Source of the DNA: an uncultured Spirochaetales bacterium
Lineage (GTDB): Bacteria; Spirochaetota; Spirochaetia; JABEVK01
Direction: 5' to 3'
Assembly (NCBI GenBank): GCA_964624355.1
Contig: CAZUXL010000002.1
Coordinates: forward strand, 37,485-101,484
DNA length: 64,000 nucleotides
Shown piece after piece: positions 12,998-28,701 of this stretch (within the stretch, counting starts at the first letter, position 1; every line of letters starts with the position of its first letter). Below the pieces are notes generated by a model. That model saw only the letters and a program-made list of their open reading frames with translations, was not told the DNA's origin and made no database searches. Made by a program: the position numbers and the translations under genes.

Positions 12998-13663
12998 TTA
13001 ACACAGCAAGCCCGATTCCTGAAAGCTGTAAAAGGAAGTCTGGGTAAAAATGAGGTGATCCAGGAGGGGAATTCCCAGGATCTGGCCAGCCTCCCAAATT
13101 CTTCTGGTAATATCCCTGTCCTCCCGGCTGGGATCTAAATTCCCCGAAGGATGGGAATGGGCCACAATGACTCCGGCGGATCTGTCCTTGATAGGGCCTG
13201 CAAATACTTCCCTTGGATGGATCAAAGTTCTGTTGAGCAAACCAATGGTCAACAGCCGGGTTCTAAGCACCTCATGGGCCCCGTTTAATGAAAGACAAAG
13301 AAAATGCTCCTGGGGGCGGTCGGCGTACCTGCGAAGAATGGTATAGGCATCCTGGGGGAGTCGAATTTTTGGTCTATGGGGAAGGTAGATCCTTCGGGTC
13401 AGCTCCAAGGTCCCCACAATTTGGCCAGCTTTGGAATGTCCTATACCTTTAATTTGAATAAGCTTTTTATAGGCTTCCAAACCTTGGTGTTTATCTAAAA
13501 CTGCCAGGCAAGCAGGGGCAAGATCTTCAATGGAAGCTTGTGCACACCCAGAAGAGAGAATCAAGGCCATGAGTTCCTGGTCAGAAAGTCCCTCGGGACC
13601 CAATTGTTTTATTTTTTCCCGGGGTCTGAGGTGGGGTCGGGGGGAGCGTAGTTCTTCATTCAT
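12998..13663 (-). CDS. radC: RadC-family JAMM/MPN+ protein (UPF0758)
   Basis: JAMM motif HSHPSGNLDPSREDRDIT. N-terminal HhH region. Confidence 0.85.
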   Translation of the reverse strand: MNEELRSPRPHLRPREKIKQLGPEGLSDQELMALILSSGCAQASIEDLAPACLAVLDKHQGLEAYKKLIQIKGIGHSKAGQIVGTLELTRRIYLPHRPKIRLPQDAYTILRRYADRPQEHFLCLSLNGAHEVLRTRLLTIGLLNRTLIHPREVFAGPIKDRSAGVIVAHSHPSGNLDPSREDRDITRRIWEAGQILGIPLLDHLIFTQTSFYSFQESGLLC

Positions 13664-13754
13664 TTCATTATAGAGAAGGAAAAAAAGAGGGTTCTGCTTT
13701 TACTTTTGATAAAAAAAGCTGGACAATTGGCCAATTGAGGATAAAATAGCTGGC

Positions 13755-14300
13755 ATGAGAAAGTTTGTACTCCTGGGAATTCTGATTTTTACCGCTTGTA
13801 CCCCCCAGGATCCCTGGTCCCGAACTCGGACAGAAATAAGGCAAATATTTGAACTCCCCCTGGTGGAGATGAATTTCCGACAAGTAATCTATCATTCTCG
13901 GGATAGGGAATGGTGGAATATTTTGGAATCTAAAAAAGAAGCTCTTTTTGCCGTTCCCGTGCGCGTACAGGCGGGATTTAATCTTCAATCTGGGTTCACC
14001 ATCCTCCCTTCGGATAATCAACATACAGTGGAAATAATTTTTCCACCCCCTTCAGTTTTACTCGCCGATGCCCTGGATGAAAAACTTCAGCAGTACTTCA
14101 GTCTTCCCCCCACCGGGTCCGTGACACCCCAGGAGCTTCAAAGCCTCCTGTCTCAGGCGGTGAAATCTGCCACAGAGGAAGCTCTTGAAGCGGGAATTTT
14201 AGAAACAGCATCTACGAATGCACAGAATTTCCTTACCTCCTTTTTTGGGGTGCTGGGTTTTCAGACGGTGATTTTCCGTATCCAGGAGATAAAAATATGA
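13755..14300 (+). CDS. Hypothetical lipoprotein
   Basis: Signal peptide plus lipobox (LIFTAC). No recognisable domain. Confidence 0.5.
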   Translation: MRKFVLLGILIFTACTPQDPWSRTRTEIRQIFELPLVEMNFRQVIYHSRDREWWNILESKKEALFAVPVRVQAGFNLQSGFTILPSDNQHTVEIIFPPPSVLLADALDEKLQQYFSLPPTGSVTPQELQSLLSQAVKSATEEALEAGILETASTNAQNFLTSFFGVLGFQTVIFRIQEIKI

Positions 14301-15022
14301 GAAAATCCCATATTTTATTAGGAATTCTTCTCTTGGGACTGAGTTTGGGGGCAGGGGGATGGGCCTATTGGGTCTACAGACAGGATCAGCAGGAACTCGT
14401 GCGCTTTTCTCTGGCCTCCCAGGTGCTCACAGGAGTTTATAATCAAACCAGGATTCAGACGGCGGATGCCTTTTATCAGGTCCTCTTTCCCTTTGACTTT
14501 TTGCCCTACGATACCTCTGCATGGAAGACCCTGAAGGCCCAAAGTACGGCACGGCGGCCTATTCCCCCGGTGGATTGGGAAACCCTGGAGTTGGTGAGAT
14601 TGGCCAGAAAAATTGGGTTTGACCCAGAGTTAGGGAAATTTGGATTTCTCGTTCTGAATATCCGGGTGAGAGCTGGTATGGATTTGGAAAAAAATCCCAT
14701 GGAGATTGAGCTGGAACCCTCAGAACGCGGTCGGGTACTGGTTCTGAGACTACCCACCCCGAGGATTACGGATTTCCAGGTTTTGGATTTTCCGGAGGGG
14801 GTCCGATTTCCTGGCATTCCCCTGGCACCATTGGACTGGAAACAGCTGATACAGCGATTAAAACCCCGGATTATTGCCCAGGTTTTAAAAGATGGCCTTC
14901 TTGCCCAAGGGCAGGAAAGTGGTGAAAAAATTTTTGATCGAATTATACGGTCCTCGGGATTTCCGAGGTATGAAATTATTTGGAAATCTCCCACGGAACA
15001 AGAACCGGGAGATCGAGGGTAA
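14297..15022 (+). CDS. Hypothetical membrane-anchored or secreted protein. ATGA overlap with the upstream lipoprotein gene.
   Basis: N-terminal hydrophobic anchor. A 4 nt start/stop overlap indicates translational coupling. Confidence 0.45.
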   Translation: MRKSHILLGILLLGLSLGAGGWAYWVYRQDQQELVRFSLASQVLTGVYNQTRIQTADAFYQVLFPFDFLPYDTSAWKTLKAQSTARRPIPPVDWETLELVRLARKIGFDPELGKFGFLVLNIRVRAGMDLEKNPMEIELEPSERGRVLVLRLPTPRITDFQVLDFPEGVRFPGIPLAPLDWKQLIQRLKPRIIAQVLKDGLLAQGQESGEKIFDRIIRSSGFPRYEIIWKSPTEQEPGDRG

Positions 15023-15024
15023 AA

Positions 15025-15480
15025 ATGGAAATACAAAAAGCAGAATGGAAGGATCTCCCCGGGATTCTGGATTTACAGAAGAGAGCCTTTTCCGAAACAG
15101 CCCAGAGGTATGGGGATCCCTTGATCGCTCCATTGACACAAACCTTAGAGGGTATTCGGGAAGAGTTCCATGACTCGGTTTTTCTTAAATTTGAAACAGA
15201 GGGCAGGCTCATGGGTGCGGTGAGGGGTAAGATAGAAGATCAAACCGCTTTTATTCACCGACTGGTGGTGCATCCAGGGTTCCAAGACCAGGGCTGGGGA
15301 CAAAAGTTACTCAATGCCATGGAAAAGGAGTTGTCCAGTGCAGAGCGACTGGTTCTCTATACAGGACACAAAGATATAAAAAGTCTTCATATTTATGAGA
15401 AACATGGATACCAAGCATTTAAAGAAGAGCGGGTAAATCCAAGATTGATACTTATCCATATGGAAAAATACCGTAATTGA
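15025..15480 (+). CDS. GNAT family N-acetyltransferase. Start trimmed to the ATG just after the upstream stop.
   Basis: Acetyl-CoA binding motif HRLVVHPGFQDQGWGQKLL (the Q/RxxGxG/A pattern). Confidence 0.7.
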   Translation: MEIQKAEWKDLPGILDLQKRAFSETAQRYGDPLIAPLTQTLEGIREEFHDSVFLKFETEGRLMGAVRGKIEDQTAFIHRLVVHPGFQDQGWGQKLLNAMEKELSSAERLVLYTGHKDIKSLHIYEKHGYQAFKEERVNPRLILIHMEKYRN

Positions 15481-15529
15481 GGCTGTCTGAAAACTACTGC
15501 GGAGAGTTTTTGGTGCGCAAAAACCTCCC

Positions 15530-17626
15530 TCAATATCCGGTTTTTTTGTAATCTTTAAGGAATTCTTGGGGTTCTATGGGTTTGGAGAAGTAGTAGCCTT
15601 GGAATCTTTGGCAACCCAGGGACTTGAGGATTTCAAATTGTTCCCGGGTTTCCACCCCTTCTGCCACGGTAATCGCATTTAAAGCCTTAGATAGTTGGAT
15701 GATGGCTTGGACTATGGAAACTGTTTTTTTATTCTCCGGGATAAGATCCACAAAGTGTTTATCGATTTTCAGATAAGTAAAAGGCAGGCCGGAAAGACTG
15801 GCAAGGGACGAATACCCTGTGCCAAAATCGTCCAGGGCAAAGCGCATGCCTTTTTCGGCATAACTGAGAATTAAAGCCCGCACATCCGATTCGTGAGCCA
15901 GCATAGTCTCGGTGATTTCAAAGTATATTCCTTCTCTGGGAAAACCGGGATTAAAAAGGGTGTCTAAAAAATTCACCCGAAATTCCCTATCTTTCAATTG
16001 CCTTAAGGAAAGATTAATGCCTATGGGAACGGAGGGCAGCTCCATGGATTCCCAAAGTTTTATTTGTTTGGCCACGGCTTTAATAGCCCAAAGACCTGCT
16101 TGGGATATTTGGCTAGATTCCTCGAGAATAGGGATAAATTCCATGGGGGATACGGGACCGTAACCAGGGCGATCCCACCGCATGAGGGCTTCGGCACTCA
16201 CCAGGCTCCCTTGCGAATCCACAATGGGCTGATATACCAGGCGGAATTCCTTTTGTACAAAGGCATGAACCAAATCTTCCCGTATTCTTGCGGATTTTTT
16301 TACCTTATCGGTCATGGCAGGGGAATAAAATACGGGACTGAATCCCAAGCGCTTGGCTTCATAAAGCGCCGTATCCGCATTTAGGGTGAGGATACTGGCA
16401 TTGGTTCCATCCAGTGGGTAAAAAGCCACCCCAATCGAGACACCGATGGGGACAGAGTGACCCTTCAGATCAAAGGGATTCCGCAATGCTTCCAGGATTT
16501 TGCTAGCCACCACGGAGGCATCCTGGGTTTGTCCCAGGGGACTAATGATGAGGGTGAACTCATCCCCGCCTAAACGGAAGACCGAATCGGTGGTGCGAAC
16601 CGCCAATTTCAACCTTTCCCCCACTTTTATTAAAAGCTCGTCCCCGGCGGCATGGCCTAAGGAGTCATTCACTTCCTTAAATTTATCCAAATCTAAAAAC
16701 ATCACCGCTACAGTGACAGGATTTTTTAATCTTTCCAAAAAAGAGATCAGCTGGTCTAATTTGTGAAAATACGCCCGTCTGTTCTCCAGTCCTGTGACCC
16801 CATCGTGGGTAGCCAGGTAGTCCATCTCCTGCGCTCTGGTTTCCAGGGCCCGATGAGATCTGGCCAAATCTGTACACATATCATTAAACGCCCTCGCCAG
16901 TTCATGGTATTCATCCTTTCTCCGGTGATGAATCCTTATGGAAAAATCCCCGGTCTGGATTTTTTTTGCAGCCCTGGAGAATTGTCCTATGGGATGTACG
17001 AGATGGCGGGATAGGAGAATGGATAATACCAGGGTTAATAAAAAGGCGGGTAAGACCCCATAACTCGCCATCCAGAGAAATTGGAATTGAAAATTTCCCA
17101 CTTCGGTTTCACGTACGTCCATAATTAATATACCACTGGGCAGGCCCTGGGAGTTTTTAATCACCGCGGTGACCTTAAAATAGGTTCCGTAAGGGGTTTG
17201 TTGGGGTTCAGGGAAATAACGATCTATCCCCTCGTGGAAAATTTGGGTGTAAACAAGGGCTGACGATTCAGGTTCTGTATGAATCCTATTTTTTTTATCC
17301 GCATCCAAGACGTATAGAAAGCTTTTGTCTTTTCCCTGAGCCACGGTATAAAGAGAAGTGATTCCTAAATTTTTGGTTTTAAATTCCCGGAGGTTTTTTA
17401 AGTAGCCTTGATAGACCGGATCGTCTAACGCTTGAGGCCCCGTGAAGCTGAGGTGACGATCCCCATCAATTGCCCCAGCCAAAGCCTGGGCTTGGATGAG
17501 TTTTTCCTGCAAATAAAACTGGACAAGAATATTTTTTCCCAAGGAAAAATAAATAAAAAAACTGGATGAGACTACCAATAAAATGAGGCCAAGGTAACCA
17601 AGAGTCAATTTTCTTTGTAAATTCAT
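15530..17626 (-). CDS. Membrane sensor HAMP-GGDEF-EAL protein (diguanylate cyclase/phosphodiesterase)
   Basis: Two TM segments flanking a periplasmic domain. HAMP. GGDEF (RLGGDEF). EAL (SAEALMRW). Confidence 0.85.
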   Translation of the reverse strand: MNLQRKLTLGYLGLILLVVSSSFFIYFSLGKNILVQFYLQEKLIQAQALAGAIDGDRHLSFTGPQALDDPVYQGYLKNLREFKTKNLGITSLYTVAQGKDKSFLYVLDADKKNRIHTEPESSALVYTQIFHEGIDRYFPEPQQTPYGTYFKVTAVIKNSQGLPSGILIMDVRETEVGNFQFQFLWMASYGVLPAFLLTLVLSILLSRHLVHPIGQFSRAAKKIQTGDFSIRIHHRRKDEYHELARAFNDMCTDLARSHRALETRAQEMDYLATHDGVTGLENRRAYFHKLDQLISFLERLKNPVTVAVMFLDLDKFKEVNDSLGHAAGDELLIKVGERLKLAVRTTDSVFRLGGDEFTLIISPLGQTQDASVVASKILEALRNPFDLKGHSVPIGVSIGVAFYPLDGTNASILTLNADTALYEAKRLGFSPVFYSPAMTDKVKKSARIREDLVHAFVQKEFRLVYQPIVDSQGSLVSAEALMRWDRPGYGPVSPMEFIPILEESSQISQAGLWAIKAVAKQIKLWESMELPSVPIGINLSLRQLKDREFRVNFLDTLFNPGFPREGIYFEITETMLAHESDVRALILSYAEKGMRFALDDFGTGYSSLASLSGLPFTYLKIDKHFVDLIPENKKTVSIVQAIIQLSKALNAITVAEGVETREQFEILKSLGCQRFQGYYFSKPIEPQEFLKDYKKTGY

Positions 17627-17666
17627 TCATAGCCAATATACTTCAATCCCGAAGGGAGTGCAAAAA

Positions 17667-19379
17667 TCAACCTTTAAATCGCTTGGACGCCTGATTCTCC
17701 AGCTTTTCCAGATCCCCCAACAAGGGGGAAAGTTCTTTCTCGGATAAAAACAACTTTTTCGTTTCCAAGGCTAGGCGGGAGTAGATGGTTTGGTACTTTT
17801 TAAAAGCAAATTTTCTTAGGGTCCAAAGAAGTCTTCTGGCGAGATTTTTTTCCTTGGGAAAGTTCTGGAGAAGATCCAGAAGAACTTGTGCTTCCTCCCC
17901 GTGATCTGAGCAGACCAGGGTTTCCAGATCCTTTGCAAAAATTTCCAAATCTTCGGTGGGCCAGGCTTCCAAGTCTTCTTTTCCCAGGTTAAATTTCCAT
18001 AGGTGTAGTGTCCCACAGGTGAAACTTCTATTATTACCCTGCCAGTGAAACGCTTCCCTCTGGTTCCATCCCCGGGATTTAATCTTTTCTGGATGAAAGG
18101 AGACCCCGAGCAGTGCCTGGATTTTTCGAAGCAGTAGAAACCGGCGAACCCTCACGGCCGATCCAGAACCTGGGACGGATGAGCGGTCCAATATGAGAAC
18201 CAGTTCGGAATTGTGAACGGCCCTGAGGGGACTTTGTCGTCCTCCCCGGTATTTTACATAGGGCTGAATGACCAGATCCACCTTACCGGATGAGGAAAGG
18301 ATTTCATACATTTCCTCAAAAGGAATGATTCCTTCAGTATTGTAGCTTAAAACGATATGCCGGGCATCGGCTTGGTCCAAAAGGGCTTTAAGGGATTTAG
18401 GTGCTTGAGTTCGTACACAGTAGGGACTGCGGCGCTCAATCCAATCCTGGCGTATTCCCGCCTTGTTTTTCAAAATTCCTTGGGGTGTGAAATTCAAATC
18501 TGCTTCCGGTTTATCCCAGAGGGTGAGGGTATTCAGCAGGTGGTAGTTTGAACCGTACTGGTGCTGATTGTAAGGGGGATCCAAATAGATCAAATCTGCG
18601 GTTTGATTCTTTAAAAATTCCTGAGCATCCAACCCAAAGACTTGGGCTCCTGGACCAGAGTCCCAAAGCTCTGGATTTTCCCATGTCATGGGATGAAAAA
18701 TCCGTTTTAATGCATCTCCCCCGTGACCTCCAAAGCCCTTATGAAAGGCTTTAAATACGCCGGAAGTATTGGAATGGGCGGAAGCTTGATAGATCAAAGG
18801 GGCGATTAAGAATACTTTTTCCCGGCGTTGCTCTTCCGGGAGTTCCCAACCGGGATACCATGATTCGATGAGGGATCGTGCTCGGTCCAGATATTGGCCG
18901 TTGGACGGGGTGAAAAACATCCGTTCTTTTGTATAATCAGCGGTGTCCAAATGGGCGGGAGAGTAATATTTTGAAAGGTACTCCTGGGCAGGAGGGGGCG
19001 AATTCAGTAGTTCCCGCAGGTGTTGTGCTCCTCCCCGGGAACCAAACCAATTATTGACCTCTTTAGGGGTGAAAGCTGTATGGGCCTCCGTAACCAGCCG
19101 GGCATAGGGTTCCCAGTCATTGGCCCCCACTTGATACCCTAAAACCCTGCCTAAACGGGCTACTGCTCCTGAACCGCAAAAAGGATCGAGAAACCTTGTT
19201 CCAGGACCGTGACCTAAACCTTGAAATATCCCTGATAAAAAGGGAAGGAGTGACCTCTTGTTTCCGATATAAGCGATGAGTTGCCTTGTGAGGTAGGGAT
19301 TTGATACAAAGGAAGGATTAACCACGGGGTAATTTACCAGAAACAGAGGGAATTTTCCAGAGCAGCAAATTTTGAACAC
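17667..19379 (-). CDS. N6-adenine DNA methyltransferase of the T4-Dam/D12 class with a roughly 250 aa uncharacterised C-terminal extension
   Basis: Motif X YIGNKRSLLPFL (T4 Dam has YTGNKQSLLPEL). Motif I DPFCGSGAV. Motif IV LDPPYN. The order X–I–TRD–IV is the alpha class. No adjacent endonuclease gene. Confidence 0.75.
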   Translation of the reverse strand: MFKICCSGKFPLFLVNYPVVNPSFVSNPYLTRQLIAYIGNKRSLLPFLSGIFQGLGHGPGTRFLDPFCGSGAVARLGRVLGYQVGANDWEPYARLVTEAHTAFTPKEVNNWFGSRGGAQHLRELLNSPPPAQEYLSKYYSPAHLDTADYTKERMFFTPSNGQYLDRARSLIESWYPGWELPEEQRREKVFLIAPLIYQASAHSNTSGVFKAFHKGFGGHGGDALKRIFHPMTWENPELWDSGPGAQVFGLDAQEFLKNQTADLIYLDPPYNQHQYGSNYHLLNTLTLWDKPEADLNFTPQGILKNKAGIRQDWIERRSPYCVRTQAPKSLKALLDQADARHIVLSYNTEGIIPFEEMYEILSSSGKVDLVIQPYVKYRGGRQSPLRAVHNSELVLILDRSSVPGSGSAVRVRRFLLLRKIQALLGVSFHPEKIKSRGWNQREAFHWQGNNRSFTCGTLHLWKFNLGKEDLEAWPTEDLEIFAKDLETLVCSDHGEEAQVLLDLLQNFPKEKNLARRLLWTLRKFAFKKYQTIYSRLALETKKLFLSEKELSPLLGDLEKLENQASKRFKG

Positions 19380-19402
19380 CTATGATTAAAGAGGCTTAAA
19401 TT

Positions 19403-19864
19403 ATGATAATTTTTGTGGATGCGGACGCTTGTCCCGTGGCGGTGAAAGAAATCCTTTACAAGGCCAGTTCCCGTTGGGGGATGAAACTTATTTTTGTGGC
19501 CAATCAGAAGATGTGGATTCCCTCATCCCCCCTCATATCCCAAATTGTGGTTTCCTCCGGTGCAGATGTGGCGGATGACCATATCGTGAGCATGGTCGAG
19601 CCGGGGGACTTGGTGATATCTGCGGACATTCCCCTGGCTGACCGGGTGATAAAAAAATCTGGAATCGTTTTGGATCCCCGGGGGGTTTTTCTTACTGCGG
19701 ATAATATCGGGCCCCGGCTGGCCTTGCGGGACCTCATGGACGGACTACGGTCTGAAGGGATGGTAACTGGGGGGCCGGGAGCCTTCGGACCAAAAGAAAA
19801 ACAGGCTTTCGCCAACCATTTGGATAGAATACTGGCGAGAGCACAAAAGGCCCAGAATCAATAA
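19403..19864 (+). CDS. yaiI: UPF0178/DUF188 family protein (YaiI/YqxD)
   Basis: N-terminus MIIFVDADACPVAVKEILYKA matches the conserved YaiI start (MxIWVDADACP). Confidence 0.75.
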   Translation: MIIFVDADACPVAVKEILYKASSRWGMKLIFVANQKMWIPSSPLISQIVVSSGADVADDHIVSMVEPGDLVISADIPLADRVIKKSGIVLDPRGVFLTADNIGPRLALRDLMDGLRSEGMVTGGPGAFGPKEKQAFANHLDRILARAQKAQNQ

Positions 19865-19928
19865 AAGGGAAATTCCACCCTTTCTCATCCCCTTGCCCCC
19901 AGCCTAGGGGTTTGGGTAGAATAAGCCT

Positions 19929-21437
19929 ATGAGAACCATGCTCCTTTCCCAGATCTTAAAAAATATGAATGTTCTAGAAAAACGTGGCCCCGATCCCCAG
20001 ATCTCAACCCTATTTTTTGACTCCCGGGAGGCTTGTCCGGGCGGATTGTTTTTTGCCTTACCGGGAGTCCACACCGATGGTCATAGGTTTATTCCCCAGG
20101 TCATAGACCACGGCGCTGTAGCCATTGTGCATTCTCAAGATCTGGACACCTACGCCCCGGAGGTTGCCTACGTGAAGGTACAGGATACGAGGTTTTTCAT
20201 GTCCCCCGTTTCTGCGGCATTTTATGATTATCCCAGCCGAGAGCTGAGGGTTATAGGCGTCACGGGAACCGATGGGAAGTCCTCCACCACCAGTTTTCTC
20301 TTTCAACTCTTGGAACTTTTGGGGCACAAGACCGGATTTTTTTCCACTGTGGAATACAAGACCGGGGATGCCGTGGAAGTTAATAGTTTCCGGCAGTCCA
20401 CCCCGGAAGCTCCCCAGATTCAGGGGCTTTTACGGGAAATGGTGGATAATGGATTGGAGTTCGCCGTGGTGGAGTCCACGTCCCATGGTTTATCGGTAAA
20501 AACCAACCGTCTGGGGGACGTGGCCTACGATGCGGCGGTTTTCACGAATGTGACATCGGAGCACTTGGAATTCCACGGTACATTGGAACAGTACCGGGAA
20601 GACAAATCCCGGTTATTTTCCCTTTTGGATACCTCGGGGAAAATGGGATTTGGGGTCGTGAACCGGGACGACCCTTGGCACGATATTTTCATCCGTGCGA
20701 CATCCCGGCCTTGTTTCACCTATAGTTTAAAGGATCCCAGTGCTGATCTTTGGGCGAATGAGATAAAGGAAGATAACACCGGACTCACTTTCACCCTCAT
20801 ATGGAAAGGTCAAAGCGTTTGCGTCACCTGTCCCTTGGCGGGGGTCTTCAATGTGCAGAATCTTATGGCCACCTTACTGACCGTGACTGGTCTGGTGGGT
20901 AAAAATCCTTTGGAATTGGCCCCCCTTCTAAAAAATATCGCTGGGGTGAAAGGACGGATGAAACTAATTAACCAGGGGCAGCCGTTTCGGGTGATTGTGG
21001 ACTACGCCCATACCCCTGGAGCCTTTGAGCGGGTTCTCCCCGATGTCCGCCTGCGTACTTCCGGTCGGCTAATGATCGTTTTTGGTTCCGGAGGGGAGCG
21101 GGATAGGGTAAAACGGCCCATCCAGGGGGCCTTAGCGGATAAATACGCCGACCTCATTTTTCTAACGGATGAAGATCCCCGTTTGGAAGATCCTTGGAAT
21201 ATCCTGGAAGAAATTGCTTCGGGAATTAAAGAAAAAACCAGGGATGAAACCCTGATTCTTCTCAGACCTCGGGTCCGGGCCTTGGAAGCAGCCCTCACCC
21301 AAGCCAAACCCGGGGATACGGTTTTACTATTAGGAAAAGGACATGAAACCAGCATCATCACGGCTTCAGGAAAGGAAGCCTGGGATGAAGAGGCAAAAGC
21401 CCGGGAAATCCTCGCAACTTTGGGTTGGAAAGAGTGA
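19929..21437 (+). CDS. murE: UDP-N-acetylmuramoyl-L-alanyl-D-glutamate–2,6-diaminopimelate ligase
   Basis: Mur ligase P-loop VIGVTGTDGKSSTT. MurE-like C-terminal domain. 502 aa. Confidence 0.9.
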   Translation: MRTMLLSQILKNMNVLEKRGPDPQISTLFFDSREACPGGLFFALPGVHTDGHRFIPQVIDHGAVAIVHSQDLDTYAPEVAYVKVQDTRFFMSPVSAAFYDYPSRELRVIGVTGTDGKSSTTSFLFQLLELLGHKTGFFSTVEYKTGDAVEVNSFRQSTPEAPQIQGLLREMVDNGLEFAVVESTSHGLSVKTNRLGDVAYDAAVFTNVTSEHLEFHGTLEQYREDKSRLFSLLDTSGKMGFGVVNRDDPWHDIFIRATSRPCFTYSLKDPSADLWANEIKEDNTGLTFTLIWKGQSVCVTCPLAGVFNVQNLMATLLTVTGLVGKNPLELAPLLKNIAGVKGRMKLINQGQPFRVIVDYAHTPGAFERVLPDVRLRTSGRLMIVFGSGGERDRVKRPIQGALADKYADLIFLTDEDPRLEDPWNILEEIASGIKEKTRDETLILLRPRVRALEAALTQAKPGDTVLLLGKGHETSIITASGKEAWDEEAKAREILATLGWKE

Positions 21438-22444
21438 GTCTTTTGGTCTGGATACTCCTGGCTTTTTCATCCGGTGCCATGGGAGGATGGTCCTGGGATC
21501 TGGGGGGGGCTGTTTTCACCTCACCCCAGGAAGGAAAGGGTAGTATTCTTTTCTCCACCCCCGAGGGAATCCCTCCCACCCTCTGGAATCTTCCCGGTCC
21601 TGGGGATTCACTTATCCAGTACGACGGGGAACTGGGCATAATTAGGTTCCTTTTTCCCTACAAAGAGGCTTTTTTAGAAGTACCTGGGGTTCAATCTCAA
21701 CCCAACGCTGCGGTTTTATGGAATGGGGGTTTGTGGATTGCCCGGGATAGGGAGTTGAAAGTGCTGTTCCCCCCGGATTCCCCTGGGGTTTTACCCCCAC
21801 TACCCCTACCCATAACGGCCTTGAGAACCCAGGAAGACCAGCTGCTAGCCCAAGTTCTCACCGGGGTTTGGTATATTTATTCCAAGGGGGAATGGGAGAG
21901 GACCGAAGTCGTACCCGCGGTGAGGGGAATCCTGCCTACGGTTTCCCTCCCTCCTCCCGAAGAGGATAAGCCACAGTCCTTCTCGGATCACCTTACCGTC
22001 ATGGAGGATCTCATGGCCCGGGACCGGTGGTCCGAAGCAAAACTTTTAGGTCTTCGGGCCTGGAACCATCCCACGTTGTTCTCTACGGAGTCCTGGAACA
22101 CCCTGGAGGCCATTCACCTCAAACTCAACGGGATTTTTCTCGGTTTTGGGAAATTAGACGCCCTGTGGGTCCCCTCAGGCCTCCAGGTCTCCTATCTCCC
22201 GGATTCCCGGGTTCCAGGTCCCTACGTCTGTCAGCTGCGGTTTCACAAAAAGGATGGGGAAGAGATCCAATCCCTTTCCCTGGGAGATACTCAGCATATT
22301 AATTGGATTTTTCCCCAAGGATGTTCTGCCTCCGATTATCTTTGGGTAGATGTGAAGGTTTTCAGAAGTGACAAACCGAATGAAATTACCATTCTGCGGT
22401 TGCCCTCCCTGATAGGCTTGTCCTTTTGGCTGAAATCAGATTAG
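21425..22444 (+). CDS. Hypothetical secreted protein (339 aa) between murE and ddl
   Basis: Signal peptide. No recognisable domain. Overlaps the murE stop by 13 nt and ends 9 nt before ddl. Confidence 0.5.
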   Translation: MERVSLLVWILLAFSSGAMGGWSWDLGGAVFTSPQEGKGSILFSTPEGIPPTLWNLPGPGDSLIQYDGELGIIRFLFPYKEAFLEVPGVQSQPNAAVLWNGGLWIARDRELKVLFPPDSPGVLPPLPLPITALRTQEDQLLAQVLTGVWYIYSKGEWERTEVVPAVRGILPTVSLPPPEEDKPQSFSDHLTVMEDLMARDRWSEAKLLGLRAWNHPTLFSTESWNTLEAIHLKLNGIFLGFGKLDALWVPSGLQVSYLPDSRVPGPYVCQLRFHKKDGEEIQSLSLGDTQHINWIFPQGCSASDYLWVDVKVFRSDKPNEITILRLPSLIGLSFWLKSD

Positions 22445-22453
22445 ATATTTCTC

Positions 22454-23518
22454 ATGAAACTGAATATTGCACTTTTTTACGGCGGTATGAGCCAGGAGCA
22501 CGAGGTCTCCCTCCGATCCGCCGCCTCCATTTACGAACATCTGGACCGGGATAAGTATGTGGTCAAGCCCATTGGAATCACCCTGGAAGGGCGCTGGTAC
22601 CTTCAGGAGGCCTTTTCTGAAGAGGGCCGACTGGCCCATGGGGATAAACTATGGATTACCCAAGATCCTGCCAAGGAAGTCTTGCTAGCACCTGGTCGGG
22701 GCTTGAATGCGGGGGGACGGTTTCTTTCGTTGGATGGGGCTTTTTTAATTACCCATGGAACCTACGGAGAGGATGGCCGGCTTCAAGGGCTCTTGGAATA
22801 CGCCGGACTTCCCTACACCGGTTCTCCTGTCCTAGGAAGTGCATTGGGAATGGATAAGGACAAGATAAAAGAAGTTTGGCAACAAAACGGTGTGAGTGTG
22901 GTTCCCTGGTTGACTCTCCGGAAGGAAGAAATAGGAAATCCTAATTTTTGGCGGAATGCGGAAAAGCAGGTGGACGCTCAGTTTTGCTGGCCTGTTTTCG
23001 TCAAACCTTCCAACTCCGGTTCCTCCGTGGGGGTCTCCAAGGTTGATTCCCCAGAAACTTTTAAATCTGCCGTGGAAGCCGCTTTTCTCATCGACTCCAA
23101 GGTTCTCGTTGAACCGGCCATCCACGCCCGGGAAATTGAAGTTGCGGTTCTTGGACCTTTAGGGAAGGAGCAGGCCTACGGACCGGGAGAAATTGTCCCT
23201 ACCCATGAATTTTACGACTATGATGCGAAATATAAGGATCCCGATGGGGCCATTCTTCAGATTCCCGCAAAATTGGAGGCTAGGCTCATTCAAGAAATCA
23301 AAGCTATGGCTTTGAAGGCCTTTAGGTCCTGCGAAGCCAAGGGTTTTTCCCGGGTGGACTTTTTCCTGGACAAAACCACGGGGAAGATTTACCTAAATGA
23401 AATCAATACCTTGCCTGGTTTTACAAGCATTTCCATGTTTCCCATGATGTGTATGGAGGATGGGGGTATGACCTATTCCCAAGTCCTGGATAGAATCATA
23501 GAAGCGGCAATTAAATAA
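22454..23518 (+). CDS. ddl: D-alanine–D-alanine ligase
   Basis: N-terminus KLNIALFYGGMSQEHEVSLRSA and ATP-grasp motifs typical of Ddl. 354 aa. Confidence 0.9.
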   Translation: MKLNIALFYGGMSQEHEVSLRSAASIYEHLDRDKYVVKPIGITLEGRWYLQEAFSEEGRLAHGDKLWITQDPAKEVLLAPGRGLNAGGRFLSLDGAFLITHGTYGEDGRLQGLLEYAGLPYTGSPVLGSALGMDKDKIKEVWQQNGVSVVPWLTLRKEEIGNPNFWRNAEKQVDAQFCWPVFVKPSNSGSSVGVSKVDSPETFKSAVEAAFLIDSKVLVEPAIHAREIEVAVLGPLGKEQAYGPGEIVPTHEFYDYDAKYKDPDGAILQIPAKLEARLIQEIKAMALKAFRSCEAKGFSRVDFFLDKTTGKIYLNEINTLPGFTSISMFPMMCMEDGGMTYSQVLDRIIEAAIK

Positions 23519-24683
23519 GTAGATTCAAAGTAATCACGGTCAATCCAGTATCCCGTACTTGATTGACCAAGGATTCAAAATGTACCCCAAGCTTGGAACA
23601 TTCTTCTGATAGGTAAGACAGGTAGTAAAGACCTAACTCCGCATTGGCCCCTGCTTCGTCGTTTCCGTCTTTGTAAAAATCCATCAAACTTTTTAGTTTT
23701 GTATTGGCACCCTTGGTGTCATCCACTGATTTTTTTAATTCCAGATATCCCGCTTCCTTATTGAAAACCCTCACGGAGAGTTTTTCCCGGCTCGCCAAGC
23801 CCTTGGTGGAGTCATTACCCACCTTCCAGGTCAAGAAAACGTTTTGGTTCCTATGGCTCATTTCTTCCACGATCATTTTCCGCATTTCCGGGTCGAACAT
23901 CACCGCATTGGGATCCAAAGTTCCCTTATACCGGGATTTGGCGAAACTTTGGATATTGGTATTTTCCGCATTAATTGCCAGTTCCATGATCATCAACGAC
24001 AGGTATTCCGCCAGCTTTGATTTTTCCATGTATTCGTGGAGGGCAATTTCAATCTGATTCAGGAGTTCCAAGTACTCATCGGAATCTTTGAACTGGGAAA
24101 GAACAAACCAAGTGAGGGGTCTGAGGTTATTGAGGAATTTTTCCGCTAAGAATAGCTGAATATTTTTTTCTTCAGGAAGTAGACTCTCGCTGGACATGAC
24201 CGTTTCCATGATGGGTCTGAGCATTTCCTGTTTGATGGACTGAATCAATACCTTATTTTTTATAAGGTTGTTGGAGAGAATCTCGGGTTTGACGCTGGTC
24301 TTTCTGTCAATGATCCCCGCAGGATTTCCCCGATTCCATTTTTTAATCAGATCCGAATCCATTATTTTGCCAAAAACGGTTTCGTCAAACCGCCGGTAAA
24401 AGGTTGCATAGGTGATGAGTTTGGAAAGATCCATGACTTCTTGGCGTTTGGACATGAATTCTGGTCGGGAGAGTTCTATATAGGAAACGTAGTTGATTAG
24501 CATGAGTTTCTGGACGGAAGCAGGGGAAAAAACGTCAAAAAAGATCCCGTATTGTTCCATATCATCTGCAAGTTTAAATTTGTTCAGTTTTTTCTTGCTC
24601 TGGATAAAAAAATTCACCCCTTCCTCGTTGAAGATGATTTTTACGGGAAGTTCCAGGTCTTTTCTTCTTTTGTCGTCAGCCAT
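23511..24683 (-). CDS. Hypothetical protein (390 aa), low-GC orphan
   Basis: Long ORF with no recognisable motif. Markedly more AT-rich than its flanks. Start is 8 nt after the nitroreductase stop. Confidence 0.5.
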   Translation of the reverse strand: MADDKRRKDLELPVKIIFNEEGVNFFIQSKKKLNKFKLADDMEQYGIFFDVFSPASVQKLMLINYVSYIELSRPEFMSKRQEVMDLSKLITYATFYRRFDETVFGKIMDSDLIKKWNRGNPAGIIDRKTSVKPEILSNNLIKNKVLIQSIKQEMLRPIMETVMSSESLLPEEKNIQLFLAEKFLNNLRPLTWFVLSQFKDSDEYLELLNQIEIALHEYMEKSKLAEYLSLMIMELAINAENTNIQSFAKSRYKGTLDPNAVMFDPEMRKMIVEEMSHRNQNVFLTWKVGNDSTKGLASREKLSVRVFNKEAGYLELKKSVDDTKGANTKLKSLMDFYKDGNDEAGANAELGLYYLSYLSEECSKLGVHFESLVNQVRDTGLTVITLNLLI

Positions 24684-24691
24684 TCCCGCTC

Positions 24692-25264
24692 CTACCAGTG
24701 CTCATAGGAAACAATCCTGCTTATAGGTAATCGTTCCGTATGTTTCTTTATCTTTTCGGCAGAATAACCCATTAACAAAAGCAGGGGAACTCTCATGGAA
24801 TGGGGAACCGTGAGAATTTCTTTTATTTCTTCTTCCCGGTAGGTGGAAAATATACAAGTATCCAGGTTTTCGTGGAGGGCTTGAAAAATCATGCTGTCGG
24901 CACAAAATGTCAGGTCGATGGGGTAGGACACCTGGCCATTGGGCATTCGATAGTCCACATTGGTACTGCAAACGGCTAAAATAAGAGGCGCAGATTTTAC
25001 CACGGATTCCCCATAGCAAGCTTCGGCAATTTTATCACGCCGGACTTTTTCCCTAATGGCGATAATTCTCCAGGGTTGTCGATTTTTAGCCGAAGGCGCC
25101 AGTCTTCCCGCTTCAAGGATTCTTTCCAAAATTTCTGGAGAAATACTTTTATCGAGAAATTCAGTGACTGTGGCCCTCCGGGCGATTTCTGGGAGAAGTT
25201 CCATGGATGTTTTCCTTAAAACATTATACATGACTTTCACAACTGGCGGAAGAACCTTGACCAA
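24692..25264 (-). CDS. Nitroreductase-family FMN oxidoreductase
   Basis: SAKNRQPWRIIAIREK signature of the nitroreductase fold. The true start may be the internal Met (MELLPEIA). Confidence 0.75.
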   Translation of the reverse strand: MVKVLPPVVKVMYNVLRKTSMELLPEIARRATVTEFLDKSISPEILERILEAGRLAPSAKNRQPWRIIAIREKVRRDKIAEACYGESVVKSAPLILAVCSTNVDYRMPNGQVSYPIDLTFCADSMIFQALHENLDTCIFSTYREEEIKEILTVPHSMRVPLLLLMGYSAEKIKKHTERLPISRIVSYEHW

Positions 25265-25286
25265 AAATTAGTAAAGTCCCTAGACT

Positions 25287-27494
25287 GTGGTAATGAATCG
25301 TCAATTTCTCCTCAGTTTCCTTCTTCTCAGTTCCCTGGCTGGTTTTTCTCAGGACGTCGTGGGTTTAAAAATGGGGGAATATTCCGATTTATATGATAAA
25401 ATTGTATCTTACGGTCCGCGAATTGAAGGTTCCCCTGGAGAAAAGTCCACTCTAAAGTTCATCCAGACCCAGTTATCCCAATGGGGAATTCCTGTTCAAT
25501 CCAGGGATTTCAGCGGATTAGCCGAGGCAGGCTCTTTTTCCAGCTCTTTGGACATTCTGATTCCTGGAAAATTGAAGGATCGGATGATCCTGGTAATACC
25601 CCTGGATCAAAAAGACGAGGCTGCTCCTGGTGGGGGCATCTCCATAACCGCCGGATTGGCCATGGCTCATTATTTTACTGAAAATCCTTTGGATATTACC
25701 CTTCAAATTTTATTTTTAGGGGGCGAAAGGGGGGGGCTGCTTCCTTATCCCCTGGGATCCCGTGCTTTTCTTCAGGATTACTATCCCGAGGCTCCCGTGG
25801 GGGTTTTTTACCTGGATGCTCAAAGTCCCCGGGGTAATTTGAGACTTCAGGTGGATTCACTCGGGCGAGCGGCTCCGATTTGGATGGTAAAAGGTTTAAC
25901 TGAATCCTTCCAGGGGGGAGATTTCACGTTTCTACTGGAGGGCAGTCATCCACCCCTCATAAGGCTTTCCTTGGCTGAAGGACAATCCGTATTGGATCAT
26001 TATTTTCAAAAAGAAATCCCAGGTATCCTGATAACCTCCGGTGACGGTACTGAACTTTCCCCTGAGGTCTGGATTCGAGAGATGATTGGCGCTGTGGAAC
26101 GTTTTATCACCCGGTATAAAGAAGGGCTGCCTGCCACCTGGGATCGACATTATTTGCTTTTTCAATGGCAAGATCAATTTATGATTTTGGATCAAAAATC
26201 TTATATTATTTTACTGCTCATCACTATTGGCATCATTTTAATTCTAATTTTTATTAGACCGGAGGTGATCCGGGAGAGGTTTTTTTCTGTAATAAAACAT
26301 AGCTGGCAGCTACCTCTGATTTTTATTGCCCTTTTTCTTTTTCTGTATGCCGCCACTTGGCTTCTGCAAAACCTCATCACTTGGAGAGATTTTCCCAGTC
26401 TGTGGAAGTTTTATCCTTCTCTGTTCCTCTCATTAAAATTGGCTGTGGGATTTTTCCTTTACTACCTTTTGTTTTTTATCTTCCGGCGTATGCCTTTGAT
26501 CCGGTGGTCGACATTTTATGTTTTTGGATCCCTGGCCGTGACCACCGTTTTGACAGTACTTTCTCTTTTTACAGGTCTGGCCAATTCCTTTTATTTTCTT
26601 TGGACCCTGGTTTTGACCGTACTTTTTGCCCTATGGAACAATAGGTATTGGCGGTTGGGGCTTCTGATTCTCATGCCCCTCTGGTTTATTAAAGCGGTGG
26701 GGGAGCTGTTTATCCAGACCCCGGATTTTACCTTGATAAACGCCGTGCTTTTTAGTCCTGTGGAAGGGAACCTGGTGCTCACGCTTTTGACTTTTCCCTT
26801 AATACTACTGGTGAGTGCTTATCACTACGTGAGTCATAAAAAACGAGGGCGGAACGAACAATCCTGGAATGAAATCTTTATGATGATTTCAGCCCTTCTG
26901 AGTATTGTTTTGGGCTTTACCGTGGCGGAGGCCAATCCCTTTCTAGAGGGGCGAAAAATACCTCTTTATTGGGTGGATGATCAATCGGAAAACTCCCGGG
27001 AGATCCGCATCTCCAGTCCTGTAGCTTGGCCTGAGGCCCTCCTTGCCATACCCGGAGAGAGTCTCCCCCTGATTCCCCAGTTACGGGAATCTCTTTATGA
27101 GGTGGAAATGATACCCGGGATCACTTTTCAATCCTCTGTGATGAATTTCCTCGACCGGAAAACCTGGAGTCTGGTTCTAAATGCTCCTGGTCAGCCCCAG
27201 CAGCTAAAGTTGCAAATTCGGTCGGAATCGGAATTGGTCATATACTCCTGTTCCTTTCCCTATCGGATACTACCGGGAAGCCGGGAAGCTGAAGTCTTTG
27301 TAGGACGCAATCCCCCCCTACCGTTTAAGGTGGATCTCACCGTGGGAAGGACCTCCTCATTAAATTTGGTTTGGAACCTGGAATATGGAAAACTTCCCTA
27401 TGGGGTAACCGGCTTGCCGGAAAATCGCGAGCTCCAGGGGACTTTAAATATACGTAAAACCCAAACACTTTCTGGAGATAAGGGTGAAATTTGA
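25287..27494 (+). CDS. Polytopic membrane protein with an N-terminal M28-peptidase-like (possibly degenerate) domain
   Basis: Signal peptide. M28-like region lacking the canonical EE pair. At least 8 TM helices in the middle. C-terminal extracytoplasmic domain. Confidence 0.45.
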   Translation: MVMNRQFLLSFLLLSSLAGFSQDVVGLKMGEYSDLYDKIVSYGPRIEGSPGEKSTLKFIQTQLSQWGIPVQSRDFSGLAEAGSFSSSLDILIPGKLKDRMILVIPLDQKDEAAPGGGISITAGLAMAHYFTENPLDITLQILFLGGERGGLLPYPLGSRAFLQDYYPEAPVGVFYLDAQSPRGNLRLQVDSLGRAAPIWMVKGLTESFQGGDFTFLLEGSHPPLIRLSLAEGQSVLDHYFQKEIPGILITSGDGTELSPEVWIREMIGAVERFITRYKEGLPATWDRHYLLFQWQDQFMILDQKSYIILLLITIGIILILIFIRPEVIRERFFSVIKHSWQLPLIFIALFLFLYAATWLLQNLITWRDFPSLWKFYPSLFLSLKLAVGFFLYYLLFFIFRRMPLIRWSTFYVFGSLAVTTVLTVLSLFTGLANSFYFLWTLVLTVLFALWNNRYWRLGLLILMPLWFIKAVGELFIQTPDFTLINAVLFSPVEGNLVLTLLTFPLILLVSAYHYVSHKKRGRNEQSWNEIFMMISALLSIVLGFTVAEANPFLEGRKIPLYWVDDQSENSREIRISSPVAWPEALLAIPGESLPLIPQLRESLYEVEMIPGITFQSSVMNFLDRKTWSLVLNAPGQPQQLKLQIRSESELVIYSCSFPYRILPGSREAEVFVGRNPPLPFKVDLTVGRTSSLNLVWNLEYGKLPYGVTGLPENRELQGTLNIRKTQTLSGDKGEI

Positions 27495-28701
27495 TCCCAT
27501 AATTTTCCATGTGGACTTGGACGCTTTTTTCGCCGCAGTGGAACAACGGGATAATCCCCAACTCCAGGGGAAACCGGTGATCGTGGGTTCCCTACCGGGG
27601 GAAAGAGGGGTCGTATCCACCTGCTCCTACGAAGCTCGGGCCTTTGGAGTACGCTCTGCCTTGCCCATTAGTCGAGCCTATGAACTTTGTCCCCAGGGAA
27701 TTTACATTCGTCCCCGGATGACTCGGTATATGGAGGTATCCCGGCAAATCATGAAAATATTTGATGATTTCAGTCCTCTGGTCCTTCCCATGTCCGTGGA
27801 TGAGGCTTTTTTAGATATGACCGGGACAACAAAACTTTTTGGTCCGCCTCTGGAAGCGGGGAAAATATTGAAAAACAGGATTTGGGAGGATACGGGGCTG
27901 AGGGCTTCGGTGGGGATTGCCCCCAACCACTACTTGGCGAAGTTGGCATCGGACTACGATAAACCCGATGGGCTTTATCAGGTGAGTCCAGAAAATATCC
28001 TTAGTTTTCTCGATTCCCTGTCCCTGGGGAAGCTCCATGGGGTGGGTGAAAAAACCCTGGAACGGCTGCATGAACTGGGAATAAGAACGGTAGCCCAGCT
28101 GAGGGAATATGCCTTGCCGGTTCTCCAGCAGTTACTAGGAAACTCTGCCGGCCAGTATCTTTACAACTCCTGCCGAGGTTTGGAAACCCAGGATTACCAT
28201 GGTGAACCGAACACCCGGTCCCTCTCCGCCGAGAGAACCTACCAGGAGGATGTCACCAGTCCTACCGCAGTTCATAAAACACTTTTGGATTTATCCCAGG
28301 ATTGTATGTTTCGGCTCTATGAGGAAGGGTGGAAAAGTCGAACCGTCCATCTCAAACTGCGGTATCAAGATTTTTCCACCTCCACGGTTCAAAAAACTTT
28401 GGGGCATTGGGTGTCCAGTACAGATGAGCTCTATAAAGCTTCCTTGGAGCTTTTAAAAACCAAGTGGAATGGTCGTCCTGCGATCCGGTTGGTGGGATTG
28501 GGTCTAGGTAATCTTCAGCGTAGCGAAGCCTTGGAGCAGGTGGAGCTTTTTGACGATCAAGGACAAAAAAACCGCCGTGTAGAACAGGCGGTTCTTAAAC
28601 TCCGGGGCAAATACCCCGGAGTGGAGGTCAATAGGGCAGGATTACTTAAACCGGGTTCTTCTTTAAATCCCACACGGACAAACCGAAGAAATAACCAATA
28701 A
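27484..28701 (+). CDS. dinB: DNA polymerase IV (Y-family translesion polymerase)
   Basis: N-terminus IFHVDLDAFFAAVEQRDNPQLQGKPVIVG is the canonical DinB start. 11 nt overlap with the upstream gene. Confidence 0.9.
   Translation: MKFDPIIFHVDLDAFFAAVEQRDNPQLQGKPVIVGSLPGERGVVSTCSYEARAFGVRSALPISRAYELCPQGIYIRPRMTRYMEVSRQIMKIFDDFSPLVLPMSVDEAFLDMTGTTKLFGPPLEAGKILKNRIWEDTGLRASVGIAPNHYLAKLASDYDKPDGLYQVSPENILSFLDSLSLGKLHGVGEKTLERLHELGIRTVAQLREYALPVLQQLLGNSAGQYLYNSCRGLETQDYHGEPNTRSLSAERTYQEDVTSPTAVHKTLLDLSQDCMFRLYEEGWKSRTVHLKLRYQDFSTSTVQKTLGHWVSSTDELYKASLELLKTKWNGRPAIRLVGLGLGNLQRSEALEQVELFDDQGQKNRRVEQAVLKLRGKYPGVEVNRAGLLKPGSSLNPTRTNRRNNQ

Follow-up and report, generated by a model that had tools for sequence, protein, structure and literature searches.

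A 64,000-nucleotide stretch of DNA from an uncultured Spirochaetales bacterium (assembly GCA_964624355.1, contig CAZUXL010000002.1, positions 37,485 to 101,484), referred to below as the window, was analysed around a DNA methyltransferase gene on its reverse strand. This gene encodes an unexceptional member of a large, already catalogued group of adenine DNA methyltransferases that stand alone and are kept throughout the spirochaetes. Taken as a whole, the likely explanation is a stand-alone (orphan) Type II enzyme of the alpha or D12 class that forms N6-methyladenine (m6A), is inherited vertically within a housekeeping gene order, and has RAATTY as its most probable target. The family is already covered by catalogues of the REBASE type and by a published methylome survey, and its discovery value is small. 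Its value lies in its very wide occurrence in Spirochaetota, in stable synteny with murE, ddl, and queD, and in a C-terminal domain that has a confidently predicted fold, is restricted to the family, and lacks a Pfam family or a solved structure. The relation between this long form and the short form resembling Campylobacter CtsM is of interest for a lineage-wide epigenetic mark in spirochaetes.

On the basis of its sequence, the protein is assigned to the D12 or alpha class of Type II N6-adenine DNA methyltransferases. It matched PF02086, the Pfam D12 class, in two stretches with 71.8 bits against a cut-off of 22 (E = 9.5e-20). In comparisons with PADLOC profiles, residues 24-569 were aligned with positions 12-575 of PDLC03345, a Type II methyltransferase profile of 581 positions (E = 7.4e-160), and residues 27-399 were covered by PDLC03257, a short-form methyltransferase profile of 343 positions (E = 8e-81). 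The end-to-end match to the larger profile indicates that the whole architecture, C-terminus included, belongs to a catalogued family, and the match to the smaller one indicates that the core also occurs in a short form. An earlier sequence-only reading of this DNA had named the motifs YIGNKRSLLPFL, DPFCGSGAV, and LDPPYN in alpha-class order, and all three were located in the translation (Table 1). The loop for S-adenosylmethionine (AdoMet; residues 65-71) is followed by the target-recognition insert and then by the catalytic DPPY (residues 267-270), as expected for this class. The insert was strongly conserved in an alignment of 40 sequences (H.NTSGVFKA.HKGFGGHG), and the protein conformed to the class I Rossmann methyltransferase fold. 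An AlphaFold2 model of the whole protein, generated with the family alignment, had a predicted local distance difference test score (pLDDT) of 85.4 and a predicted template modelling score (pTM) of 0.86.

The designation "T4-Dam class" given in that reading holds in the broad D12 sense of PF02086 and fails for the Dam subfamily, membership of which was rejected. The NCBIfam model of that subfamily, TIGR00571, returned 25.9 bits against a cut-off of 114.85, with the match limited to residues 33-74, and T4 Dam was aligned to only the first ~60 residues (E = 0.1) when PDB sequences were searched with the protein. This single-protein search yielded no useful relative among PDB sequences, and none was found there with the family profile. 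The match to the NCBIfam CcrM model was marginal (E = 0.082).

The open reading frame (ORF) of 570 amino acids described earlier was confirmed as an ORF opening with GTG. At the N-termini of the homologues in the alignment, the PYLT motif was preceded by 9-20 residues, and these N-termini were fitted better by the GTG at 19325 than by that at 19379. Judged from this alignment, translation probably begins at the GTG at 19325, for a protein of 552 amino acids; the same length is used in the public annotation of an identical protein (P0001) from groundwater metagenome assemblies. With this start, the gap to the divergent yaiI gene is 77 bp. The divergent arrangement reported before is thus retained, and the reported distance of 23 bp is replaced. 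Promoter and terminator scans of the region between the two starts gave background-level output, with no significant signal.

Among 3239 scored homologues, the best 120 all had lengths of 511-667 amino acids and covered the query in full, end to end. A genome scan that included one genome per species was performed with two kinds of query. None was found with the single protein, and a relative was found in more than 590 species genomes with the alignment. Unless stated otherwise, the locus counts given here refer to the best 80 loci of these genomes. These loci were nearly all from Spirochaetota and included Marispirochaeta, Sediminispirochaeta, Oceanispirochaeta, Treponema, and Rectinemataceae, and T. 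pectinovorum, T. parvum, and T. berlinense were also matched in a search with a Treponema profile. Vertical inheritance of the family through Spirochaetia forms part of the best overall explanation and is considered likely.

The gene order around the family was compared by tblastn of the window neighbours. A murE match was present in 52 of the 80 loci, mostly directly upstream and divergent and in a few cases 1-2 kb away, and a ddl match was present in 31. Where murE was complete (51 loci), it stood back-to-back with the methyltransferase gene within 200 bp in 26 loci and was separated from it by 400-560 bp in 20. The larger gap is filled by a queD/PTPS gene on the methyltransferase strand. 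This gene, which encodes 6-pyruvoyl-tetrahydropterin synthase (PF01242), was located directly upstream on the same strand in 25 of the 80 loci (e.g., L029:5582-5995 and L013:5554-5979) and also at L165:6609-7001. The queD and methyltransferase genes of T. perfilievii share a single base. Within the 64-kb window, queD gave no match. Other recurrent neighbours were hflC/hflK, metG, a FemAB-like gene, a nitroreductase, and an RlmG-like rRNA methyltransferase. The window itself has the order murE, a protein of 339 amino acids, ddl, a protein of 390 amino acids, nitroreductase, and a protein of 735 amino acids, as elsewhere.

No nuclease recurs among the neighbours in the 80 related loci. Among the window neighbours tested (~12998..28701), no restriction endonuclease or other defence protein was matched in Pfam or PADLOC, the PADLOC comparison covering ten neighbours, in agreement with the earlier statement that no such enzyme is adjacent. 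A Type II restriction-modification pair at the locus was rejected, there being no adjacent cognate endonuclease in the window or in the related loci. The suggestion of an orphan or epigenetic regulatory methyltransferase was upheld by conservation across the lineage, by the housekeeping synteny, and by the lack of a nuclease in the window and the 80 loci.

Some of the matched records call for separate mention. Three loci labelled Clostridia bacterium (L006), Collinsella sp. (L057), and Parabacteroides distasonis (L074) carry spirochaete-family methyltransferases, and the sequences from the latter two fell with Treponema in the Treponema alignment. Mis-binning of spirochaete contigs, and not horizontal transfer, is the probable cause. 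One homologue of 667 amino acids (P0049) is an apparent fusion of QueD and the methyltransferase, whose sequence departs from the family consensus, in the manner of frameshift errors, both at the QueD junction and at the C-terminal end. The fusion was rejected as evidence of functional coupling, since both junctions look frameshifted, and is probably an artefact of assembly or annotation.

The target was considered in the light of published methylomes. An orphan family that forms RA(m6A)TTY was described in six of six sequenced Spirochaetaceae, and regulatory roles were proposed for it (Blow 2016, PMC4752239). The genes concerned are Spirs_2892 (M.SsmMII), TDE0706 (M.TdeV), Spith_1825 (M.Sth6578II, annotated as D12 class), Spiaf_1714, Spica_0084, and Tresu_2158, and the enzymes named also include M.Saf8902I, M.Tca7334II, and M.Tsu2489I (Blow 2016, PMC4752239), together with M.Spe19205I (Fomenkov 2020). 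The single-molecule real-time (SMRT) methylome of Thiospirochaeta perfilievii contains RAATTY, ATTAAT, and TTATAA (PMC7380536), and the family member in this species (P0046, 43% identity) has the context murE|queD-methyltransferase-RlmG, with no nuclease. The window gene shares with the spirochaete RAATTY enzymes the D12-class Type II assignment, the lack of an adjacent cognate restriction enzyme, and conservation across Spirochaetaceae, in Spirochaeta and Treponema, as well as a relative in a bacterium that methylates RAATTY. It differs in that its locus has gained yaiI and GGDEF-EAL neighbours, and it is likened to these enzymes by class and distribution, being known here from sequence alone. 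Most probably, the window gene belongs with these orphan RAATTY methyltransferases of spirochaetes.

The occurrence of RAATTY in the window was also determined. There were 167 sites against 194.5 +/- 11 expected, a mild under-representation that says nothing about methylation. Two sites (19350-19355 and 19367-19372) lie in the 77-bp divergent region, compared with a window average of one per ~380 bp. Their position near the methyltransferase start could reflect autoregulation, if RAATTY is the target, or the AT-rich composition of the intergenic DNA, and like the site count it is not diagnostic.

Several points weigh against the explanation preferred here. None of the six named methylome strains was among the matches listed in the homologue, genome, Treponema-profile, and Sediminispirochaeta searches, and the assignment to RAATTY was made from class, taxonomic distribution, and orphan status rather than from alignment to the named enzymes, while the number of RAATTY sites in the window is uninformative in this respect. 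The role given to the C-terminal domain is conjectural, and a distant restriction enzyme is possible, since the window comprises 64 kb. In addition, T. perfilievii, and likewise O. crateria, methylate ATTAAT and TTATAA besides RAATTY (PMC7380536), and a family member may make either of the first two marks. Both organisms are close to genomes that carry family members, and an enzyme of the same orphan family directed to ATTAAT or TTATAA was weighed. Such a target appears unlikely. RAATTY alone was found in all six Spirochaetaceae methylomes, ATTAAT being present in one of the six; the RAATTY enzymes of S. thermophila and S. africana (Spith_1825 and Spiaf_1714, D12 class or adenine-specific methylase) are the only non-IIG Type II m6A enzymes listed for these species and thus the sole listed candidates of the class (PMC4752239); and the recognition insert hardly varies across a family that includes both Treponema and Spirochaeta.

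Three other alternatives were considered. A role as the modification enzyme of a Type II restriction-modification system whose endonuclease is encoded elsewhere in the genome is improbable. Type II restriction and modification genes at least 36 kb apart are documented (Blow 2016, PMC4752239), 64 kb of this genome was visible, and PADLOC files the profile as 'MTase_II', not as an orphan; against this, housekeeping synteny over hundreds of species is a signature of orphans and not of mobile restriction-modification genes, and the spirochaete RAATTY enzymes, which are classed as orphans, methylate incompletely (6.5-75% in three Spirochaeta strains; PMC4752239). A modification-plus-effector or toxin-antitoxin-like pair with the divergent yaiI, as had been proposed, would accord with the close divergent starts (23-77 bp apart, depending on the start codon) and with the nature of the product, as DUF188 is classed as an NYN-like member of the PIN-like superfamily, a putative nuclease of unknown function (PMC5499597), in agreement with the PIN-like grouping named before. 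The pairing itself is highly improbable and was abandoned. The yaiI gene adjoins the methyltransferase gene in none of the 80 related loci (tblastn), and different genes lie upstream in the closest relative (63% identity). Elsewhere, the position taken here by yaiI is either vacant or occupied by queD. Conversely, among 80 metagenome yaiI loci (44-70% identity), neither this methyltransferase nor murE was present in any, the neighbours being variable, and yaiI had no PADLOC match. It is a genome-specific insertion between the methyltransferase gene and murE and lies outside the system. The recurrent queD-methyltransferase operon prompted the further possibility that the protein acts with QueD on RNA or a small molecule, not on DNA, which was given the lowest probability of all.

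On the preferred explanation, the orphan enzyme is placed as follows. The family gene is flanked by murE-ddl on one side, often with queD directly upstream, and by hflKC or metG downstream. The N-terminal ~400 residues of its product contain an intact AdoMet loop (DPFCGSG) and a catalytic DPPY, parted by the conserved target-recognition insert. With these the enzyme would flip out and methylate the adenine in each strand of a short palindromic site, most probably 5'-RAATTY-3'. Without a cognate nuclease, the mark may serve the host, either in gene regulation through protected unmethylated sites or in the marking of self DNA as by Campylobacter CtsM, as the literature suggests. The last ~170 residues form a compact, mostly basic helical domain, which would serve as an accessory module, and yaiI and the GGDEF-EAL gene look like local insertions with no functional tie.

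Features located in the window are listed in Table 1.

Table 1. Features of the methyltransferase locus (positions in the window; residues of the methyltransferase in the numbering used here).
Feature	Positions	Strand	Residues	Remarks
Methyltransferase ORF	17667..19379	(-)		570 amino acids from GTG at 19379; probable true start GTG 19325, giving 552 amino acids
Catalytic core	18180..19301	(-)	27-400	D12/alpha-class; enlarged target-recognition insert between motif I and DPPY
Motif YIGNKRSLLPFL		(-)	37-48	Seen in the translation, N-terminal to DPFCGSGAV
Motif I, DPFCGSGAV	19161..19187	(-)	65-73	AdoMet-binding loop; D65, F67, G69, and G71 invariant in 40 homologues
Motif IV, LDPPYN	18567..18584	(-)	266-271	Catalytic DPPY; D267, P268, P269, and Y270 invariant in 40 homologues
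Family-specific C-terminal domain	17670..18179	(-)	401-570	Long helix, small three-stranded sheet, and five-helix bundle
Divergent 5' region	19326..19402			Separates the yaiI start (19403) from the probable methyltransferase start (19325); two RAATTY sites
yaiI/DUF188	19403..19864	(+)		153 amino acids; Pfam E = 8.5e-43; above the NCBIfam NF001095 equivalog cut-off
murE	19929..21437	(+)		Conserved divergent neighbour of the methyltransferase family; Mur ligase Pfam domains on the identical gene (L081 and L082)
HAMP-GGDEF-EAL gene	15530..17626	(-)		698 amino acids; Pfam; 40 nt downstream of the methyltransferase gene, same strand

The extent of the C-terminal domain was derived from the end of the core. 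In the 40-sequence alignment, core motifs (SYNTEGIIPF, Y..YRGG+QS, and EL.L.LDR) extend to about residue 399, and relatives on plasmids (81 records) and phages (10 records) aligned by tblastn to residues ~25-404 only and never to the tail. Together with the coverage of residues 27-399 by PDLC03257, this places the end of the core near residue 400. The C-terminal extension, previously estimated at roughly 250 amino acids (residues 330-570), therefore comprises ~170 (about 401-570). It is unannotated, as had been stated, and is a constitutive part of the catalogued family rather than a peculiarity of this gene. The tail is less conserved than the core and clearly homologous among family members, with the motifs SF.P, C..D..EE..VL, LRKFAF+KY, and A..RF.G. 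Residues 400-570 modelled alone with AlphaFold2 gave a pLDDT of 94.4 and a pTM of 0.86, and both this model and that of the whole protein support the boundary near residue 400. The domain is basic in most members, with a median charge of +7 and an isoelectric point of 9.4, compared with +2 and 8.1 for the core.

No consistent Pfam family was found for the domain in 25 members, and no match was found in the PDB, in line with the earlier remark that the region held no recognised motif. A profile of the domain was compared with 1.84 billion representative proteins, and 232 clusters were obtained at E <= 0.001. The domain was at the C-terminal end in 150 of the 150 clusters listed, and of seven shorter matches inspected, five clearly had the end of the methyltransferase core upstream and were fragments of the same family. 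By this profile search, the domain was found only in this methyltransferase family. It may act as an accessory module for DNA binding, clamping, or oligomerisation, rather than having a separate enzymatic or reader function. A new functional module is conceivable at a low level of probability, for example a DNA clamp by which processivity or specificity is altered, or a docking surface through which methylation is coupled to a cell-cycle or cell-wall programme. A hint of such coupling comes from the many genomes in which the gene stands back-to-back with murE-ddl. If a new module were present, the family would be a spirochaete counterpart of CcrM or Dam.

Comparison with Dam of E. coli and T4 shows the same Pfam family, the alpha order of motifs with an N-terminal Y-x-G-x-K followed by FxGxG and DPPY, and orphan status, which Dam also has. 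Compared with Dam, which recognises GATC, the recognition insert of the window protein is much enlarged and a further domain is present at its C-terminus; its specificity is therefore probably different. CcrM of Caulobacter is a lineage-conserved orphan of the beta class (PF01555) that recognises GANTC and has an extra C-terminal DNA-binding domain. The window protein resembles it in concept, both being orphan adenine methyltransferases of the core genome in which the catalytic domain is followed by a C-terminal extension, but belongs to the alpha class, and the two C-terminal domains have no known relation in sequence or structure. The Campylobacter enzyme CtsM (M.CjeNI, M.CjeFI; Cj0208) is a RAATTY orphan of the D12 class (PMC4294202, PMC3526280) that marks self DNA for natural transformation. 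The short-form profile PDLC03257, which fits the window core, is of similar length to CtsM. CtsM differs in having 364 amino acids (PMC8627207), by which length it is without the ~170-residue C-terminal domain, and in belonging to a different phylum; the role in transformation is that of Campylobacter.

The GGDEF-EAL gene that had been noted 40 nt downstream on the same strand was confirmed there and was identified as a HAMP-GGDEF-EAL gene (Table 1). It had no match in any of the 80 loci. The closest relative shares the downstream block GNAT-DUF4230-DUF4230-RadC-NAGS-arginase, with the GNAT gene directly after the methyltransferase gene, and has neither yaiI nor the GGDEF-EAL gene. The HAMP-GGDEF-EAL gene looks like a local insertion with no functional tie to the methyltransferase.

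The proteins of 339, 390, and 735 amino acids that lie among murE, ddl, and the nitroreductase gene (21425-22444 (+), 23511-24683 (-), and 25287-27494 (+), respectively) had no Pfam or PADLOC family. The 390-residue protein is kept beside ddl in six related spirochaete loci. A membrane protein of ~746 amino acids occurs at a comparable position in 21 related loci, its likeness to the 735-residue protein of the window being one of position. On the other side of the methyltransferase gene, the GNAT ORF (14980-15480 (+), TTG start, 166 amino acids) overlaps the preceding DUF4230 gene (14297-15022 (+)) by 43 nt. Public gene calls for this GNAT protein give 151 amino acids, and its real start is probably further downstream.

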